A stretch of DNA of 7,616 nt from a virus (taxonomy: Duplodnaviria; Heunggongvirae; Uroviricota; Caudoviricetes), in the IMG/VR virus record IMGVR_UViG_2695420643_000016, positions 1 to 7,616 of that record. One strand, given 5' to 3'. Below the pieces are notes generated by a model. It searched no databases, was not told where the DNA came from, and saw only the letters and a list, made by a program, of their open reading frames with translations. Of the stretch, positions 1 to 7,473 are shown piece by piece. A program made the position numbers and the translations under genes. Numbering within the stretch: position 1 is the first letter of the stretch; every line of letters begins with the position of its first letter.

Positions 1-96
1 GCAGAAGCAGAAAAAGCTTATTATGCTTCCATCGGAAACGATGATCTGGCAGCCTGAGTTCACAGATAAAATACTCTCCAGGAAACCCGGGGCGGT

Positions 97-204
97 TCAC
101 TGGCAGGCCTGAATCACAAACTGGCAGGCCACAATCTTTCCGCGCACAACATCACGGGCATACTGATTGGCAGCATTTACGTTGGGGTAAGATTTCCGGC
201 TCAT
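97..204 (-). pseudogene. N-terminal fragment of a large terminase (TerL-like), 35 codons ending in an in-frame TGA; probable truncated or disrupted terL
   Basis: ATG at 202..204 overlaps the terS stop (ATGA). Translation is [35 protein letters not shown] then TGA at 97..99. The Y-A-x-D-V-x-x-G-K-I-x-A-C ... A-C-Q pattern matches my recollection of the N-terminus of PF03354/COG4626 large terminases, where R-x-L-x-D-L normally follows. No frame in 1..96 continues that motif. A single-base misreading on my side cannot be excluded. Confidence 0.35.
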
Positions 205-695
205 GACTCGATGATTTTCAGAAACGGGTTAGTGGCTTTCTTCTGCCCCGCCAGGCCAATCAGACGCTGGCGGCTGCTGGGGTCGAGTCCGAGCATTGCC
301 CCCGTGCTGCTCATCTCGGACTCCTGTTCTTTTTTGGCGGTCAGCTCCGGATTTTTGACCCTGCCGCCCATTGCACCGGTGATGGTGTTGCCCTGTATGG
401 CAATATTTTTCACGGCACGTCGCCAGAACTCATAGGCCACGCACCACCGCTCAAGCACCGCGAGGTCAGTCACGCACAACAGGCCCTGACCGCAGAGTTC
501 TTTGGTTGTCAGTTGCCACATGATCGTGGCGAGAGGGAGATTTTCTTCTGCGAACCACTCCGGTGGCTCAACACCTTTGATGGGCGTAAAAACAGGTTCA
601 TCTTTATTCAGGGCTCGCTTGCCGGGGTTTCCGGCCAGCGCCTTGCGCGCCGTTGGCTTGGGGCGACGCCCGGAACGCCCCGCCGTTCCAGCCAT
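201..695 (-). CDS. terminase small subunit (P27-like family)
   Basis: Track ORF 201..704. Product [27 protein letters not shown]... resembles P27-family TerS as I recall it. The track start is GTG at 704; the in-frame ATG at 693..695 is preceded by AGGAG and is the likelier start. It sits immediately downstream of the HNH gene and is coupled to the next ORF by an ATGA overlap. Confidence 0.8.
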
Positions 696-745
696 ATGCG
701 GCACTCCTGGTTAAATTTCATTTTTCGCGGGTATAAAAAAACGAT

Positions 746-794
746 GGGGCGGGCAGTCCGGAAGACGTCAGGTCACAGGGATTTGACCCGCCCC
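746..794. other. candidate cos (cohesive end) region between the HNH and terS genes
   Basis: G-rich inverted repeat GGGGCGGG (746..753) and CCCGCCCC (787..794) flank a 33-bp core containing a GACGTC palindrome, preceded by an A7 tract. The GGGGCGGGCAGTCC string loosely resembles the lambda-type cohesive end GGGCGGCGACCT. The gene order HNH-cos-terS is the known HK97-type packaging arrangement. Confidence 0.3.
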
Positions 795-820
795 TCCCCT
801 CTTGCAGTGGGAACTGGTTC

Positions 821-1171
821 TTACTTCAGCCGTTCACGGGCCGTCTTCGCCTTATGACACGGCCAGCACAGGCTCTGCAGATTGCTGTCGGCATCAGTGC
901 CGCCATGCGCTTTAGGGATGATGTGGTCAACGGTTTTCGCCTCGCGCACCACACCGGCACGCAAACACAACTGACACAGGCCTTTGTCACGCTTTAGTAC
1001 ACGCCCCCGGATAACATCCCATTTCGAACCATAACCGCGCTGGTGTCGGGACTGGCCTGGCTTGTATTGCTTCCAGCCCTCGCTTTTGTGGCTTTCGCAA
1101 TAACCTGACGGGTCAGTCGTGGTATGGCGGCAGCCGCGAACTCGGCAGGCTTTTGGGGTTCGTGGTGGCAT
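821..1171 (-). CDS. HNH homing-type endonuclease, phage packaging-associated
   Basis: Track ORF 821..1270 begins with TTG; the in-frame ATG at 1169..1171 (MPPRTPKACRVRGCRH...) is preceded by GGAG at 5-nt spacing. The product has CxxC...C...H and DHIIPKAHGG...N...CWPCH motifs typical of HNH nucleases. It lies directly upstream of terS. Confidence 0.8.
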   Translation of the reverse strand: MPPRTPKACRVRGCRHTTTDPSGYCESHKSEGWKQYKPGQSRHQRGYGSKWDVIRGRVLKRDKGLCQLCLRAGVVREAKTVDHIIPKAHGGTDADSNLQSLCWPCHKAKTARERLK

Positions 1172-1292
1172 ATGTACTCCAATGAAGAAGCTACCGACAT
1201 AGCCTCCTCCATTCGTCGTGAAACTATTTTCATCTACCCAGTAATGAATTCTTTGAAGAGTCGAGATCAATACAACTCACTGATGGGAGAGG

Positions 1293-1314
1293 CTTGCCTC
1301 ACGCGTGAGGCAAG
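1293..1314. repeat. perfect 22-bp palindrome CTTGCCTCACGCGTGAGGCAAG (possible stem-loop or protein-binding site)
   Basis: Read directly from the sequence. It lies in the roughly 290-bp gap between the Rz1 stop and the HNH start. The T-rich flank TTTCCTGTTTGATTT is on the plus-strand side only, so it is not a canonical terminator for the minus-strand late transcript. Confidence 0.5.
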
Positions 1315-1517: not shown

Positions 1518-1740
1518 TCCCCGCTTTGTCAATATTGCATTGTCCCAACGCTGACAACAGACTCACATTCAACTCCAGACTGGCACCATACGTCAGCGGA
1601 TTGGGTATAAACGGTACAGGAGTATCAGAAGTCAGGCTGGCTGGCAGTGGTGCCACCGGAGCGCTCACGTAAACCGTTCGCGAATTTCCGCAACCGGTCA
1701 GCAGCGACAGCAGGCACAGGACGTGAAGCACAATCATCAT
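1465..1740 (-). CDS. Rz1: o-spanin (Rz1-like outer-membrane lipoprotein), overlapped architecture
   Basis: Tandem ATG-ATG at 1735..1740 in the +1 frame inside Rz. Product MMIVLHVLCLLSLLTGC... has a lipoprotein signal with lipobox LLTG-C followed by a proline-rich mature region. The frame stays open 160 bp past the Rz stop. Confidence 0.55.
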   Translation of the reverse strand: MMIVLHVLCLLSLLTGCGNSRTVYVSAPVAPLPASLTSDTPVPFIPNPLTYGASLELNVSLLSALGQCNIDKAGIRKIEASRSGRNESDSK

Positions 1741-2017
1741 CCGCAACAGCCACTTTGATATCTTCCTGGGTTCTCTGTGACTCCAGTGTGATCTGCTGTT
1801 TTGCATGCTGGTTAGCCTCCAGAACTGTATTGACGATTTGCAGTGATTGCAGGACGTTATTGGTAATGACAGTTGCCGATTTGGCATTTTGTACAGCCTC
1901 ATCAGCACGTTTCTTTTCGTGCTGATATTTGCTGTAGTAGTGGTTGGCAGACCAGATGAAAGAACCGATGACAGTAAAGAAGAATGCAGCGATAACCAAC
2001 TTATAGCTCAACTTCAT
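1625..2017 (-). CDS. Rz: i-spanin (Rz-like), N-terminal TM anchor plus coiled-coil periplasmic domain
   Basis: 130-aa ORF directly after the endolysin, overlapping its 3' end by 17 nt. N-terminal hydrophobic segment LVIAAFFFTVIGSFIW followed by a charged, helix-prone sequence. Rz1 is embedded or overlapped in the +1 frame. Confidence 0.75.
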   Translation of the reverse strand: MKLSYKLVIAAFFFTVIGSFIWSANHYYSKYQHEKKRADEAVQNAKSATVITNNVLQSLQIVNTVLEANQHAKQQITLESQRTQEDIKVAVADDDCASRPVPAVAADRLRKFANGLRERSGGTTASQPDF

Positions 2018-2477
2018 TTACCACCCCACCAGCCTCTTTAAACCGGGCAATCAGATCACCGATTTTATGTTCATACTGACCGTAACCAGCACCCGGCAAT
2101 GAAGCCCAGATATTGCTGCAACGGTCGATTGCCTGACGGATATCACCGCGATCAATCATCGGCAAAGCGCCACGCTCTTTAATCTGTTGCAATGCCACAG
2201 CGTCCTGACTTTTGGGAGAGAAGTCTTTCAGGCCAAGCTGATTACGGTAGGCATCCCACCAACGGGAAAGAAGCTGGTAACGTCCGGCGGCTGTTGATTT
2301 GAGTTTGGGGTTTAGCGTGACAAGTTTGCGAGGGTGATCGGAGTAATCAGTAAACATTTCACCACCGACAATAACATCATAACCGTGGTTACGTGTCGGT
2401 TGTCGCCCGTTATCCGTTCCTTCTGACCATGCAACCATATCCAGGAAAGCTTTACGCTGGGAATTTAGTACCTGCAT
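2001..2477 (-). CDS. R: endolysin, lambda R-type lytic transglycosylase
   Basis: 158-aa product MQVLNSQRKAFLDMVAWSEGTDNGRQPTRNHGYDVIVGGEMFTDYSDHPRKLVTLNPKLKS... is near-identical over most of its length to phage lambda R as I recall it, including the catalytic E in the WSEGTD motif. It sits between the holin and Rz. Confidence 0.92.
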   Translation of the reverse strand: MQVLNSQRKAFLDMVAWSEGTDNGRQPTRNHGYDVIVGGEMFTDYSDHPRKLVTLNPKLKSTAAGRYQLLSRWWDAYRNQLGLKDFSPKSQDAVALQQIKERGALPMIDRGDIRQAIDRCSNIWASLPGAGYGQYEHKIGDLIARFKEAGGVVNEVEL

Positions 2478-2480
2478 AAA

Positions 2481-2807
2481 TTACTCCTTAGAGCCACCAA
2501 ACTTATTACCGATTACTCTCATTGCAGCCCCACGAATAGCATCGACCCCGATCAGCCCAACGCCGCCACCAATGGCAACAGAAAGAGATTTAGGCCATCC
2601 GACATACTCAAGAGCGGATGCAAAAGTCAGCGTCAGAGCACCACAGAGCAAAATCTCGAGCGTTTTTCGTTTCCAGCCACCACCACCGCCAAAATAGGCA
2701 ATGCGCAAGCCAGCCATAACGATCGACATAATCACTGCGCCCAGCGGTGTGTCTCCACGCCACCAGCTCTGGACCAACTCCAGCCAGGTATTTGGGTTAT
2801 GAGGCAT
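2481..2807 (-). CDS. holin (class I-like, three predicted TM segments)
   Basis: 108-aa ORF immediately upstream of the endolysin with a 3-nt gap. Three hydrophobic stretches (LGAVIMSIVMAGLRIAYF, LEILLCGALTLTFASALEYV, LSVAIGGGVGLIGVDAI) and a charged C-terminus. The size matches lambda S. Confidence 0.7.
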   Translation of the reverse strand: MPHNPNTWLELVQSWWRGDTPLGAVIMSIVMAGLRIAYFGGGGGWKRKTLEILLCGALTLTFASALEYVGWPKSLSVAIGGGVGLIGVDAIRGAAMRVIGNKFGGSKE

Positions 2808-2959
2808 TTGTAGTTATCTCTCACCTCGCTGATACAGCAGGTGCAAATTGAGGGAACATCATGTACCGCAAATCAGAAGCGGAAACATCAAAGAAGCCGA
2901 ACCGATGGAGAACTGCGGAATAGGCCAGGACCAACGAATCCCCAGCCACAGAAACGACA

Positions 2960-2981
2960 AAACCCGCTCGACGGCGGGTTT
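2960..2981 (-). terminator. tR'-like intrinsic terminator in the late leader upstream of the holin
   Basis: On the minus strand, AAACCCGC-CGUCGA-GCGGGUUU (8-bp stem, 6-nt loop) is followed by UGUCGUUUCUG, a hairpin plus U-rich tract. It lies about 150 nt upstream of the holin start, where lambdoid phages place tR' between pR' and S. Confidence 0.4.
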
Positions 2982-3103
2982 AAGCTGTGTGGCGAAGTAA
3001 CCACTCTTAACAGATTACAATGTTTTTTGCGGAACGCGCTAATGATTTCCTCTTTTTTTTGTTGTATTTTTCACACGGTTGCTAAAATTATTTCGGATCG
3101 ATA
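2982..3103 (-). promoter_or_regulatory. inferred late promoter (pR') and Q-utilisation region, exact elements unresolved
   Basis: Inferred from position between the tR'-like hairpin and the cassette. The only -10-like hexamer on the minus strand is TGTAAT (plus coordinates 3015..3020) with a weak -35. No element could be assigned with confidence. Confidence 0.25.
3059..3088 (+). promoter_or_regulatory. candidate sigma70 promoter for the plus-strand cassette
   Basis: TTGTTG (3059..3064), 18-bp spacer, TAAAAT (3083..3088), about 15 nt upstream of ATG 3104. It is embedded in a T-rich tract that includes a T8 homopolymer at 3053..3060. The leader would be very short and has a weak SD. Confidence 0.25.
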
Positions 3104-4045
3104 ATGAGTACAGAAAATAAGAATAAAACCAGGCGAGTGAGAGTTGGTTTTTTCACTGGTAATGGAAGCAAAAAAGATGGCACATCTGCTGCAAAACTAG
3201 CCTTTGAGCAAATGACCACAGCAGATACTGTAACTTTTCCAATAACTTACACAACAGACACCCCAAATCGAGGGTTAAAGTTAGTTATTCTTCAAAAAGA
3301 TACCACACTGCAATGTTACTTTGGTTACGTATCGTGGAGAAGGGAATGCCTACTACCGTTCATCGAGGATGCTACAGGTAGTGAGAGAACAATTCCTTTA
3401 AATGATAAAGATTCTGTAGTTGAAAGAACATATTTTATCTATTACTACGAAACGGACTTATTAGCTATGACCCTCAACCATATAGGGCCCAAAGTAAATG
3501 ATCTGGCATTCATTTTGTATAACAAAACTGATTTAAAAAGCGTCACTTTTGAAGCCATTTGGAAACAAGAGAGCATGAAGGAACTGCTTGAGGACGGAAA
3601 TATCCTACGTAGTTTCGATCTTATAGTTGCTGCTCCAAGAAACTTTAACAAAGCTAATTATAAGATTAAAAACCCTTTAGCTAATGAAATTATTGACATG
3701 GTTGTTGGTATGGGCGGGTCGCATCTAAGATTAAATATGCGAGGTCGGATTCGCCCGAAAAAACAAGGATTTAACTATCTAAAAACTTCTGTCACCGATG
3801 CTATTAAGGAACTACTTGAACTTTTTCCAAAAGGTTCTGGAGGTCTAAAAATTAAAAAAATTGATGTAACAGAGCCATCCAATAGAACGCCCAAAAGTCT
3901 ACTTGACCAAGTATTGGTCAGTACAAAGACAATCATTGTCAAAAGCGGTTATCCATCCGATTCTGATATCAGAACGGCGATGATATCTGCTAAAATTGAT
4001 AACGCGAACTATCTTGCACAGTATGAGCTCGCTAGCAGAGACTAA
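3104..4045 (+). CDS. hypothetical 313-aa soluble protein, first gene of the AT-rich cassette; candidate sensor component of a RexA/RexB-like two-gene defence module
   Basis: Long ORF on the strand opposite the phage late operon. Hand-counted GC is about 33-37% versus about 58% in a flanking phage gene. No signal peptide or TM segment, and no Walker, HxH, DEAD or PD-(D/E)xK motif that I could recognise. It is followed after 21 nt by a membrane-protein gene. Confidence 0.8.
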   Translation: MSTENKNKTRRVRVGFFTGNGSKKDGTSAAKLAFEQMTTADTVTFPITYTTDTPNRGLKLVILQKDTTLQCYFGYVSWRRECLLPFIEDATGSERTIPLNDKDSVVERTYFIYYYETDLLAMTLNHIGPKVNDLAFILYNKTDLKSVTFEAIWKQESMKELLEDGNILRSFDLIVAAPRNFNKANYKIKNPLANEIIDMVVGMGGSHLRLNMRGRIRPKKQGFNYLKTSVTDAIKELLELFPKGSGGLKIKKIDVTEPSNRTPKSLLDQVLVSTKTIIVKSGYPSDSDIRTAMISAKIDNANYLAQYELASRD

Positions 4046-4066
4046 TAACCAAGCATGGAGGACACA

Positions 4067-4516
4067 ATGAGAGAATTAGCCACTTTTCTCTGGAAATGCG
4101 TCCTCTGGATTCTGTTGACCTATGCAGCGACAAAACTGTTTAAACCGATGAAGCATGCTGACGTACTCACAACAGCGGGGGTGCTCTCGACTATATCAGG
4201 CATCCTGTTTGGTTTTGTTCTGGCTGCAATATCTATATTTAGTAGTGCAAACAGCGATAAGGAAGGAGCAATTAATGCCCTTAAGCAAAACAACGTGTTA
4301 CCAACTCTGGTAAATAGATTACTTTCAACAGGGTTAACTCTCATCGTCGCGTGTATATTTCCATTGATAGCGATGTTTCTACCTGATGATGTTATTGTTG
4401 CGGGCAAACCTATTGATTTCCTGTTCATACTGTTAGGCTTATCCTCCCTTATAATTTCGCTATATACCTTCGGAAGGTGTTGGTTAGTGTTACGAAAAAT
4501 CTTCCCCCACTTGTGA
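4067..4516 (+). CDS. hypothetical 149-aa inner-membrane protein with four predicted TM helices; candidate effector of the cassette
   Basis: Track ORF 4055..4516. The ATG at 4067 is preceded by GGAGG at 5-nt spacing; the ATG at 4055 has no SD and would add MEDT. Four hydrophobic segments of about 20 aa each (FLWKCVLWILLTYAATKLF, VLSTISGILFGFVLAAISIF, LLSTGLTLIVACIFPLIAMFL, IDFLFILLGLSSLIISLYTF). Same AT-rich composition as the upstream gene. Confidence 0.8.
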   Translation: MRELATFLWKCVLWILLTYAATKLFKPMKHADVLTTAGVLSTISGILFGFVLAAISIFSSANSDKEGAINALKQNNVLPTLVNRLLSTGLTLIVACIFPLIAMFLPDDVIVAGKPIDFLFILLGLSSLIISLYTFGRCWLVLRKIFPHL

Positions 4517-4545
4517 CAGGTTGGCCTCATATGGGGCCAACCTGT
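4516..4545. repeat. stem-loop (11-bp perfect stem, 8-nt loop) at the convergent junction between the cassette and the Q gene
   Basis: ACAGGTTGGCC (4516..4526) pairs with GGCCAACCTGT (4535..4545). It begins at the stop codon of the membrane-protein gene and ends 7 nt before the Q stop. No U-tract on either strand. Confidence 0.45.
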
Positions 4546-4551
4546 GCAACC

Positions 4552-4917
4552 CTAAGCGTCCATTTCAAGGTTAACATCCAACATTGAAAGGCAACCATCA
4601 ATAAATCCTTCGGCTAGTTGTATTTCTATGCGTACCAATTTTTCATCCTTTCCACGCACCTTTGCAATCTTACGCTTGGATATTCTGTATAAATAATGTG
4701 CCACAAGCAGCGAGTGCTCATCTGGCTTTTTTTGCTTTAGACGAGCAAGACAACCTTCAATAATTAATGCATCACTATCTGAACAAGCCTGACGTGTTTT
4801 GCTTGTGTAGGGAAGAAGCCCCTTAAACCCAGCAGCTATAGGCGAATAGTCTACTCCAGAACTATCACTCGCCGCCCATGCTCCCCAACGCTCCAGAACC
4901 ATCTGAATATCACGCAT
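4552..4917 (-). CDS. late-gene antiterminator Q, short QuuD-like family
   Basis: Product MRDIQMVLERWGAWAA...AAGFKGL...LEMDA matches my recollection of the DLP12 Q homologue QuuD in its N-terminus and overall pattern. The track start is TTG at 4920; the ATG at 4915..4917 is preceded by GGAG. It sits between the nin-like genes and the lysis cassette. Confidence 0.7.
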   Translation of the reverse strand: MRDIQMVLERWGAWAASDSSGVDYSPIAAGFKGLLPYTSKTRQACSDSDALIIEGCLARLKQKKPDEHSLLVAHYLYRISKRKIAKVRGKDEKLVRIEIQLAEGFIDGCLSMLDVNLEMDA

Positions 4918-4934
4918 CAACTTTCTCCACCAAA

Positions 4935-5930
4935 TCAGGCCAACACCCCAATCGCCAGCGCGCGATCGATAAAACGAAATATCAGCTCCAGTTGGGAGCC
5001 ATACTTCTCTTCAAATGCCACGGTATCCGCATGCAGCTCGTCGTGATGCTTTCTGCACAAAGGCAACACAAAGAGGTCATGCGCTTTTGTACCCATTCCA
5101 CCCTGACCGTGACCTATCAGGTGGTGGGGATCATCAGCAGGCTTTCCACAACATGCACACGGCTGTGTCTTAACCCAGCGCGTGTACTTTTCATTAACCC
5201 AGCGGCGGCGTTTTGGTCGTAACATAAAAGACTCCAGCGACTCCGGATCCACTTTCAGCGCCAGCACCTTTTTCGCTTTATCCTGGATAATGCTGGTGGC
5301 AGGAACCGAAGGCACAAGGTCACTTTCCCGGGTGACCGCCTGCACAACAGGCTTCGGTAATCTCAGTGCCTTACGGGCTGCACTTTCCGGTAAGGCATCC
5401 GCCAGGTCATTACGAATCAGCCACCAGCACAGTTCCGGTATTGTCACAACGTGACTGTCATCAAAACCGAGATCCCGACGCACAACAGACAACACCCAGC
5501 GGGCACAGTTATCCGTTGCCATTGATTCCAGCCGTTCCGTGAACTGATCGCGCAGCTGGTTATCGCAGTGCCAGCACAAACGGATTGCGCCCGGAGCGTG
5601 TCGCATTGTTGTCATGTTCTCGCTGTGCCAGTCGGAATGAGGCCACTGGCAGCCTTTTTCACGAAGTAACCAGCTTTCAAGACATTCCACGCCACCAGCA
5701 CGACGGATCACTGCCTCATTGCGGAATACGGCCCGAACGGCAGGATCATCCGCCAGCGGTTGTGATGCCGCCGGAACGGCACCACTGGCGAAAGATGAAT
5801 AACGTTCCGGCTCAGGCTCCAGCAGGACACGCCCCTGCATAAACAGGGGCATCAACTCTGAACCTGGCCTGAACAATACGATCCCCATACGCGGGGCAAT
5901 TTCAGGGGTCAGTAGTGCTCTCACGGTCAC
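4935..5930 (-). CDS. DUF968-like prophage protein with C-terminal zinc-ribbon/HNH-like motif
   Basis: 331-aa ORF directly upstream of Q, the position YdfU (DUF968) occupies next to the Q gene in the Qin prophage. C-terminal CACCGK...DPHH...GGMG.K...LPLCRKHHDELH motif. The track start is GTG, 1 nt after the stop of the upstream gene. Confidence 0.55.
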   Translation of the reverse strand: MTVRALLTPEIAPRMGIVLFRPGSELMPLFMQGRVLLEPEPERYSSFASGAVPAASQPLADDPAVRAVFRNEAVIRRAGGVECLESWLLREKGCQWPHSDWHSENMTTMRHAPGAIRLCWHCDNQLRDQFTERLESMATDNCARWVLSVVRRDLGFDDSHVVTIPELCWWLIRNDLADALPESAARKALRLPKPVVQAVTRESDLVPSVPATSIIQDKAKKVLALKVDPESLESFMLRPKRRRWVNEKYTRWVKTQPCACCGKPADDPHHLIGHGQGGMGTKAHDLFVLPLCRKHHDELHADTVAFEEKYGSQLELIFRFIDRALAIGVLA

Positions 5931-5931
5931 C

Positions 5932-6741
5932 TCAATGAACGGTATCGAGCAGCTTTAACAGCTCAGGGAATCGGGATTCGAAGAAATGCGGCTGCGTCTC
6001 GCGCGGATTTGCGGGACTGGTGATGTTCTTGCCGAACATGCAGCCTTTCGCTGTCAGCGACCAGAATTTTTTGATGTTGTTAATCGCGGTACGGCTGTAT
6101 CGTTCGCGCTGCTCGACGATCCCCAGCTTCACCATCTGGTGATATGCCTGATTAGCCGTCAGGCGGATACCATACTGTTTCAGCAGTGCACTCAGTGACA
6201 GCGTAGGGCGACTTGAGCCATCGTGTGCATCAGCAGGAGCATCAATGGCATAGCGCGGTGCCAGATTCGGTAAGCCAACAGCCTCCTGGAGTTTCTGACA
6301 GGCCCCAAGCACTGAAGAGTTAGACAGGTTTAACTCCCTGCGCATAAAGTCCAGCAGAATCACTCCAGCCTGCATCTTGTCAGCAGCCTGCCCGGATAAT
6401 TTTTCCGGTGCGCTGGTTACCATATCGAAAGTACGGATCACCTTCAGATGGAATGACGGGCTGATCCACATTGCATAGGCATACACCAGTTCTTTGCAGA
6501 CATACGTCCCCTGGTTATTTCCGCCATTAATGACGCTAACTGGTTGATTTTGTTCCAGAGGCGGAATTCCACCCTCGGTGAAAAGTTGTTCAATCAATTC
6601 ACAGGTTTGCTTATTGGAGAGCCAGTATTTCGGGCGGTTTTTTTGTTCTCCCCCGGCTGCCCTGTGCAGATCGTTCAGGCTGTAACGCCCATAAGCATCA
6701 CGACGAACTTCAATACCATCAATGACCATCAGATTATTCAT
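5932..6741 (-). CDS. KilA-N domain protein with a C-terminal domain of unknown function
   Basis: N-terminal region MNNLMVIDGIEVRRDAYGRYSLNDLHRAAGG...KYWLSNKQT...VCKELVYAYAMWISPSFHLKVI resembles the KilA-N DNA-binding domain. The track start at 6774 has no SD and overlaps rusA; the ATG at 6739..6741 is preceded by AGGAGA and is preferred. Confidence 0.75.
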   Translation of the reverse strand: MNNLMVIDGIEVRRDAYGRYSLNDLHRAAGGEQKNRPKYWLSNKQTCELIEQLFTEGGIPPLEQNQPVSVINGGNNQGTYVCKELVYAYAMWISPSFHLKVIRTFDMVTSAPEKLSGQAADKMQAGVILLDFMRRELNLSNSSVLGACQKLQEAVGLPNLAPRYAIDAPADAHDGSSRPTLSLSALLKQYGIRLTANQAYHQMVKLGIVEQRERYSRTAINNIKKFWSLTAKGCMFGKNITSPANPRETQPHFFESRFPELLKLLDTVH

Positions 6742-6760
6742 ACTTCGTTTCTCCTCTTGA

Positions 6761-7150
6761 TCAGGCGGCTGCACCCGCCGTTTTCTCGTACTTACTGATA
6801 GTGATCTCGACCTTCCCTTCCGGGATAACCGGTCCCCACTCCACCAGCATTCTTTTCACCTGGCTGTCGTCTTCCCACACACCCGCGTGAGTCAGGGCGT
6901 CAAACAGCGCCTTGTTATAGTTGTCCAGATCGCGGATCCGGTTATCCGGAGGAAACAACACGATCTCCACTGAAGCAGGTGCTGACGTTGGTTTCGGCAG
7001 ACGACGTAACTGCTCAACTATTGCTGTGCACGCCGCACTCTGGAATTTTCGCCCCGCCGCGCTTATCAGGCTCTTACCAGCAAACGCCCCTTTGTTGGGG
7101 TGTCGCCAGTACGTGTTCACGCTGGGCGGAAAAGGCAGGATCAGCTTCAT
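6761..7150 (-). CDS. rusA: Holliday junction resolvase RusA
   Basis: 129-aa product with the RusA signature region DLDNYNKALFDALTHAGVWEDDSQV, which resembles E. coli RusA (DLDN..KA.FDALT.AG.W.DD.QV). Typical nin-region position. Its start overlaps the stop of the upstream gene (ATGA). Confidence 0.85.
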   Translation of the reverse strand: MKLILPFPPSVNTYWRHPNKGAFAGKSLISAAGRKFQSAACTAIVEQLRRLPKPTSAPASVEIVLFPPDNRIRDLDNYNKALFDALTHAGVWEDDSQVKRMLVEWGPVIPEGKVEITISKYEKTAGAAA

Positions 7151-7473
7151 GCTTTCAGGCCTCTCTCATGTAACCAGTGGGTTGCACGCAGCCTTGCGTT
7201 TTCCTCACCGGCAAGCAGTGAGCGGATAATCCCGACCGCCTCGCTGTCGTCGTCCTTCACCGCGGTATGAAGCGTTATCCCCCGGGCCACGCCACGCTTT
7301 ATCGTGATGACGCCTTTTTTCTCCAGTGCGCGAAGATGCTCCACCGCTGCATTCACTGAACGGTATCCCAGCATGGTTGCCACCTCCTGATTGGTTGGCG
7401 GGAAGCCACGTTCTTTCTGGTAAGAAATCAGCATATCCAGCACCTGCTGCTGGCATTGAGTTAATGTCGTCAT
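7147..7473 (-). CDS. LexA-family N-terminal DNA-binding domain protein (winged helix), no peptidase domain
   Basis: Product MTTLTQCQQQVLDMLISYQKERGFPPTNQEVATMLGYRSVNAAVEHLRALEKKGVITI...ARGI parallels the LexA N-terminal domain (LT.RQ.EV...I......G.PPT..EIA..LG..S.NAA.EHL.AL..KG.I). At 108 aa it is too short to carry the S24 peptidase domain. Confidence 0.8.
   Translation of the reverse strand: MTTLTQCQQQVLDMLISYQKERGFPPTNQEVATMLGYRSVNAAVEHLRALEKKGVITIKRGVARGITLHTAVKDDDSEAVGIIRSLLAGEENARLRATHWLHERGLKA

Follow-up and report, generated by a model that had tools for sequence, protein, structure and literature searches.

The gene for the large terminase subunit (terL) of an E. coli prophage has almost certainly been interrupted by the insertion sequence IS629, which would have transposed into the reading frame exactly after codon 35. 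The DNA that we analyzed, a stretch of 7,616 nt to which we refer as the window, includes one end of the element. In a three-way alignment of the window with an intact terL and with IS629, the switch from the phage gene to the insertion sequence occurs exactly after the CAG triplet of codon 35; on the terL strand, the sequence …GCC TGC CAG is immediately followed by TGAACCGCCCCGGGTTTCCTGGAGAG… of IS629. The original prediction had interpreted the early end of the reading frame as the mark of a defective prophage truncated within terL, as in DLP12 and Qin. We concur that terL is inactivated, but we attribute this to the insertion of IS629, and a deletion of the DLP12/Qin type is unsupported within the contig.

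The prophage and its packaging module

The window corresponds in full to a single contig, CYFQ01000070.1 (7616 bp), of the E. coli draft assembly GCA_001284485.1, with which it is identical after reverse complementation. All phage genes are located on the minus strand, and their order is that of a lambdoid late region. The gene for a LexA-like regulator (7473..7147) is followed by those for RusA (7150..6761), a KilA-N protein (6774..5932), a DUF968 protein (5930..4935) and the antiterminator Q (4920..4552) and, beyond two cargo genes on the plus strand (3104..4045 and 4055..4516), by the genes for the holin (2807..2481), the lysozyme (2477..2001) and Rz (2017..1625). Next to these lie an HNH endonuclease gene (1270..821, minus strand; Pfam PF01844, E = 3.9e-16), which is annotated in relatives as a 116-aa protein corresponding to 821..1171, and terS, the gene for a small terminase of the P27/Terminase_4 family (201..704, minus strand; Pfam PF05119, E = 3.9e-20; PHROG 83). 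The true start of terS is likely the ATG at position 695, which gives a protein of 164 aa, the length annotated in relatives. An HNH endonuclease gene that adjoins the terminase genes is an arrangement typical of HK97-like cos packaging modules. The prophage, a lambdoid one of E. coli, is HK97-like and related to SfV/SfII.

The same order of HNH, terS (P27) and terL is found in SfV, SfII, SfIV, SfI, 118970_sal3 and many E. coli prophages, and the DNA identity of the window to these packaging modules amounts to 92-98% over a region that comprises the HNH gene, terS and the initial 105 nt of terL. These modules possess a complete TerL protein of 577 aa, followed by ymfR and the portal, protease and capsid genes, whereas terL in the window is cut after 35 codons.

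When the deposited starts of related phage genomes are mapped onto the window, they fall into the intergenic stretch between HNH and terS (about 710-810): those of SfV and SfIV at ~762 (query position 539), that of SfI at ~744 (557), that of SfII at ~808 (493) and that of ST64B at ~710 (591). If the cohesive end is where these records start, the cos site of the packaging module lies within about 710-810 of the window.

The 35-codon terL fragment

The reading frame in question extends over 35 codons on the minus strand (204..97), with the terL portion occupying 100..204, cut after the CAG (Gln35) at window 100, and the TGA stop codon located at 99..97. As originally predicted, its ATG (204..202) overlaps the stop codon of terS (203..201) in an ATGA motif (204..201), an overlap that is likewise present in the aligned intact relative. 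The large-terminase-like character of the N-terminus was also recognized correctly: the 35-aa peptide is identical in all 35 positions to residues 1-35 of the intact 577-aa TerL protein WP_000088159.1, and it matches PHROG 4914, terminase large subunit, with E = 7e-9. At the DNA level, a single synonymous difference separates window positions 204..100 from the intact terL of E. coli L1PEag1. The same intact TerL is found in many E. coli prophages, in which the ymfR, portal, protease and capsid genes come next.

The stop codon is real and no reading error, and none of the three frames of positions 1..96 continues terL, as had been noted; these bases belong to IS629, as revealed by the alignment. 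An intact terL that runs on in the same frame, named in the original prediction as the finding that would speak against it, is absent from the alignment of the window with the intact gene. In the intact relative, the ATPase domain (TerL_ATPase, PF03354) comprises residues 86-256 and the nuclease domain (TerL_nuclease, PF20441) residues 268-558. The reading frame of the window ends ahead of both, and the encoded 35-aa product is thus devoid of ATPase and nuclease domains. As judged from its sequence, terL of the window is a gene fragment and does not specify a functional TerL protein.

A megablast search with window positions 1-1300 against 5,426 complete E. coli genomes placed this fragment into a broader frame. 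More than 1000 E. coli prophages match the region 1300..100 with identities of up to 99.5%, their matching sequences are annotated as HNH, terS (P27 family) and terminase large subunit, and each match stops at window position 100.

The IS629 end and its junction with terL

Positions 1..99 of the window are the 3' terminal 99 nt of IS629, a member of the IS3 family, in plus orientation and therefore opposite to terL; the last base of the element (…GGTTCA) is position 99. The contig end at window position 1 falls 99 nt inside IS629, probably as a result of the breakage of a short-read assembly at a multicopy repeat. This terminal segment is identical in 98 of 99 nt to the end of the annotated 1310-bp IS629 copy of the Stx2a phage Stx2_499 (LC567824.1), a length over which close IS629 isoforms are inseparable. 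For the reference copy, the annotation lists OrfA and OrfB as well as CCAG as the duplicated target, and in a comparison with phage records, window positions 104..1 gave a 99% match to IS629 of Stx-converting phages.

Two features of the element can be discerned within the 99 nt. The final 18 codons of the transposase gene orfB (AEAEKAYYASIGNDDLAA) and its TGA stop codon (55..57) occupy positions 1..57 on the plus strand, and their translation is identical, over these 18 codons only, to the C-terminal end of the OrfB protein annotated for IS629, BCI49431.1. OrfB is read towards the right inverted repeat, as it is in IS629. This right terminal inverted repeat, delineated by a comparison of IRL and IRR in the reference IS629 and by the alignment, covers positions 60..99 on the minus strand, where it reads inward. 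It starts with TGAACCGCCCCGGG, that is with 5'-TG…, as required for IS629. The four bases next to the end of the element (100..103, minus strand) read CCAG on the terL strand, and CCAG or CAG at this position would be the expected 3-4-bp target-site duplication, seen here next to a single end of the IS; target duplications of IS629 have a size of 3-4 bp (PMC3271280).

We propose the following origin for this arrangement. IS629, an element of the IS3 family of about 1.3 kb, would have transposed into terL of the prophage just past codon 35, with its transposase genes running opposite to terL. Reading of terL would then enter the right inverted repeat of IS629, whose leading TGA would by chance be in frame and would set the stop after 35 aa. 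The distal part of terL would either be present on another contig, as in a simple insertion, or would have been lost through an IS-associated deletion. The terL reading frame ends at 35 aa because the inverted repeat of IS629 begins with the triplet TGA, which lies in frame with the preceding codons.

Insertions of IS629 into the prophages of E. coli O157 and other STEC strains agree with the window in the IS end (98/99 nt), in its inverted repeat and in the C-terminus of OrfB. Here, too, a gene of a lambdoid prophage is the target, and this is the commonest kind of location for IS629; in O157 genomes, 62% of the IS629 copies reside in prophages or prophage-like elements (PMC3271280). In Stx2_499, IS629 likewise lies within a disrupted phage gene, with CCAG at its flanks. 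What sets the window apart from the STEC insertions is the site, codon 35/36 of terL in an SfV/HK97-like module: a query with window positions 1-420 at a coverage of at least 80% did not recover the terL-IS629 junction from the 5,426 complete E. coli genomes. Insertions of IS629 into prophages are well documented, and the window is an ordinary case of this already known kind.

Insertion or deletion beyond the IS element

The contig ends inside IS629, and the missing portal and capsid genes are consequently no evidence for a deletion; in the original prediction, the end of the contig had been taken for that of the prophage. In our view, it is more likely that the insertion was a simple one and that the remaining part of terL resides on another contig, since the region upstream of the junction is intact and 96-99% identical to that of complete prophages that continue into ymfR and the portal, protease and capsid genes. 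The alternative to be taken most seriously, rather improbable as we consider it to be, is a deletion bounded by IS629 that removed the rest of terL together with the head and tail genes and left a DLP12/Qin-like remnant with the IS at its scar. After such a loss, the junction would look identical to the one that we observe, and IS629 is reported to cause, together with the IS-excision enhancer protein, adjacent deletions with sizes between a few nucleotides and over 40 kb (PMC9943667). However, the window itself carries no sign of a deletion, and any multicopy IS can be expected to end contigs assembled from short reads in just this way.

We also searched for the second junction that a simple insertion predicts, in which the left end of IS629 (…CCCGGGGCGGTTCA) is joined via CAG or CCAG to terL from codon 36 onward (CGCCATCTTGATGAC…). 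Five predicted protein products of this junction were derived with a 3- or 4-bp target duplication, a 30- or 99-nt overlap with the IS and alternative translational starts. In an exact look-up, for which the terL allele and the gene call had to be guessed, only one of the five was present, a fragment of 536 aa starting at Met42. It is encoded on a 327-kb NCBI contig and on at least two metagenome contigs, and in these two no transposase gene was called upstream of terL. At the DNA level, the predicted second junction had zero matches among the JGI metagenome contigs and the contigs of a one-genome-per-species collection, in which the isolate need not be included. That this junction was missed both by the exact look-up and in the two DNA collections speaks weakly for a deletion; however, the exact look-ups hinged on the guessed allele and gene call, and their misses say little.

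DLP12 and Qin are cryptic prophages of E. coli K-12 that retain lysis genes and the start of a packaging module and that possess no working large terminase. Both are deletion remnants. The likeness of the window to them is limited to the missing working terminase, and the only lesion seen in the window is the IS insertion.

Direct repeats in the terL fragment

Three direct repeats had been predicted in the region of the junction. Two of them are real, but the third one is gapped, close to what chance produces, and situated within IS629. Our repeat search returned one family with two copies on the plus strand (99-115 and 120-136; 17 nt, 15/17 identical [88%], spacing 21), and base 99 of the first copy already belongs to IS629. 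Exact occurrences of CTGGCAGGCC are confined to positions 100 and 121. When one mismatch is allowed, the window contains three matches to this sequence as compared with 0.63 expected by chance, and three were reached in 9 of 200 shuffles. Both copies are TerL coding sequence (VACQ/QACQ) and are unchanged in all seven intact relatives that we checked (7/7); they are therefore an ordinary part of the gene and have nothing to do with the truncation. The presumed third copy (46-65; CTGGCA-GCCTGAGTTCACA) spans the stop codon of orfB inside IS629. Its alignment to the repeat comprises 17 matches and two gaps, and an equal score was obtained in 70 of 2000 shuffles; the similarity is probably due to chance and at most marginal. 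With two copies conserved in intact terL genes and the third one in the IS near chance level, we rejected the repeats as the cause of the truncation.

The similarity between 46-65 and 100-119 could also be thought of as a microhomology that assisted IS629 in the choice of its target, as part of a scenario in which the element serves as a reversible lock on packaging that is opened, and terL re-armed, when the IS is excised with the aid of the IS-excision enhancer. Excision of IS629 is indeed promoted by this protein in E. coli strains that carry it (PMC9943667). We regard this combined scenario as highly improbable; the marginal similarity of the two segments argues against its microhomology component, as does published work according to which IS629 has no sequence-specific target (PMC3271280).

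The junction in other assemblies

The junction between terL and IS629 is located at the contig end of a draft assembly and was found in no other assembly; the JGI metagenome contigs and the one-genome-per-species collection contain zero exact-pattern matches to it. One might thus suspect that 99 nt of IS629 were wrongly joined to a terL gene that is intact in the organism. We hold such an artefact to be exceedingly improbable, given that the sequence switches precisely where the inverted repeat of IS629 has its terminal base, an outcome that transposition produces and that would be unexpected for a chimeric join. Contigs from other samples point in the same direction. An exact look-up of the 35-aa product retrieved ten places among the matches listed (24 contigs, 29 index blocks), one of which is the contig of the window itself, CYFQ01000070.1. 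The other nine are partial genes at contig ends that terminate 0-2 nt past codon 35, with neither a stop codon nor IS sequence; they break off at CAG or continue as CAG-C, CAG-CG or CAG-CA, as intact terL does, and the breaks probably stem from sequence differences between terL alleles. A reading of the 35-codon frame as a genuine short gene, or of its TGA as a site of read-through or frameshifting that restores TerL with the repeats as a slippery or regulatory element, is next to impossible: the in-frame spacing of the repeats, noted in the original prediction, is the sole point in its favor, but past the TGA there is no terL in any frame, just IS629 antisense sequence, the repeats are conserved coding sequence of intact genes for which recoding is unnecessary, and the terL/IS629 alignment rules out recoding and sequencing error alike as the cause of the stop.

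Fragments with sizes of 34 to 51 aa occur in the same TerL protein cluster, on up to 67 contigs. Many independent assemblies break at codons 34-51, which suggests a 5' end that is conserved among terL alleles and beyond which these differ; the point of divergence may be a mosaic boundary. We also considered a recurrent insertion of IS elements, or an insertion hotspot, at codon 35; this idea was dismissed because the fragments of 34-51 aa reveal the set of 35-aa products to be an effect of the exact-match look-up.

Unusual terL calls were observed in two relatives. In GCA_014103455.1 (4174-5904), terL is called with 498 aa and is separated from terS by a gap of 234 nt; this product is present on 12 contigs, and its length may be due either to another lesion at the N-terminus or to the choice of a different start. 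In GCA_006238915.1 (SQCK01000305.1, 5566-10105), the late genes are duplicated or fragmented, with DUF2570 called twice, the HNH gene split, and terL broken into pieces of 132 aa and 95 aa that are followed by a second terL start. SQCK01000305.1 looks like a low-quality or rearranged assembly.

Cargo genes between Q and the holin gene

The two cargo genes (3104-4516, plus strand) are positioned between the genes for Q and the holin, in an orientation opposite to that of the phage genes, and encode a 313-aa protein and a predicted membrane protein of 149/153 aa. Their GC content is 36-42%, as compared with about 55% in the flanking regions. Neither protein has a significant match in Pfam or PADLOC, with a sub-threshold match to DUF4064 for the second protein only; they match PHROGs 7651 and 8552, both of unknown function. 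The 313-aa protein is very widespread (4340 index blocks) and is always found at the Q-holin site. Among relatives, the content of the Q-to-holin gap (about 2810-4550 of the window) varies and includes a KAP-family NTPase, a TIR_2-domain protein, an AAA_15 ATPase together with a DNA methylase, an MBL-fold hydrolase, an SDH-family protease and an N6_N4 methyltransferase. The gap has the appearance of a hotspot at which accessory or defence genes are exchanged.

Consequences for the prophage

The domain content of the terL product indicates that the prophage should be unable to cut or package its own DNA, because the ATPase and nuclease domains are missing from the 35-aa peptide. The genes for the antiterminator Q, the holin, the lysozyme and Rz remain intact, and induction could therefore still lyse the cell. 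The likely outcome is hence a prophage for which lysis of the host is possible, and whose own DNA can be packaged only with the help of a phage that provides a compatible terminase or after excision of the IS.

For the annotation of such elements, to which the relevance of our findings mainly pertains, the deposited protein CTZ80502.1, a "terminase" of 35 codons, is a fragment made by the insertion of IS629. The appropriate record for the prophage would be "terL disrupted by IS629, extent unknown", and not an entry as a remnant of the DLP12 type. The case described here adds to the inactivations of prophage genes by IS629, which are well described as a source of diversity in E. coli.
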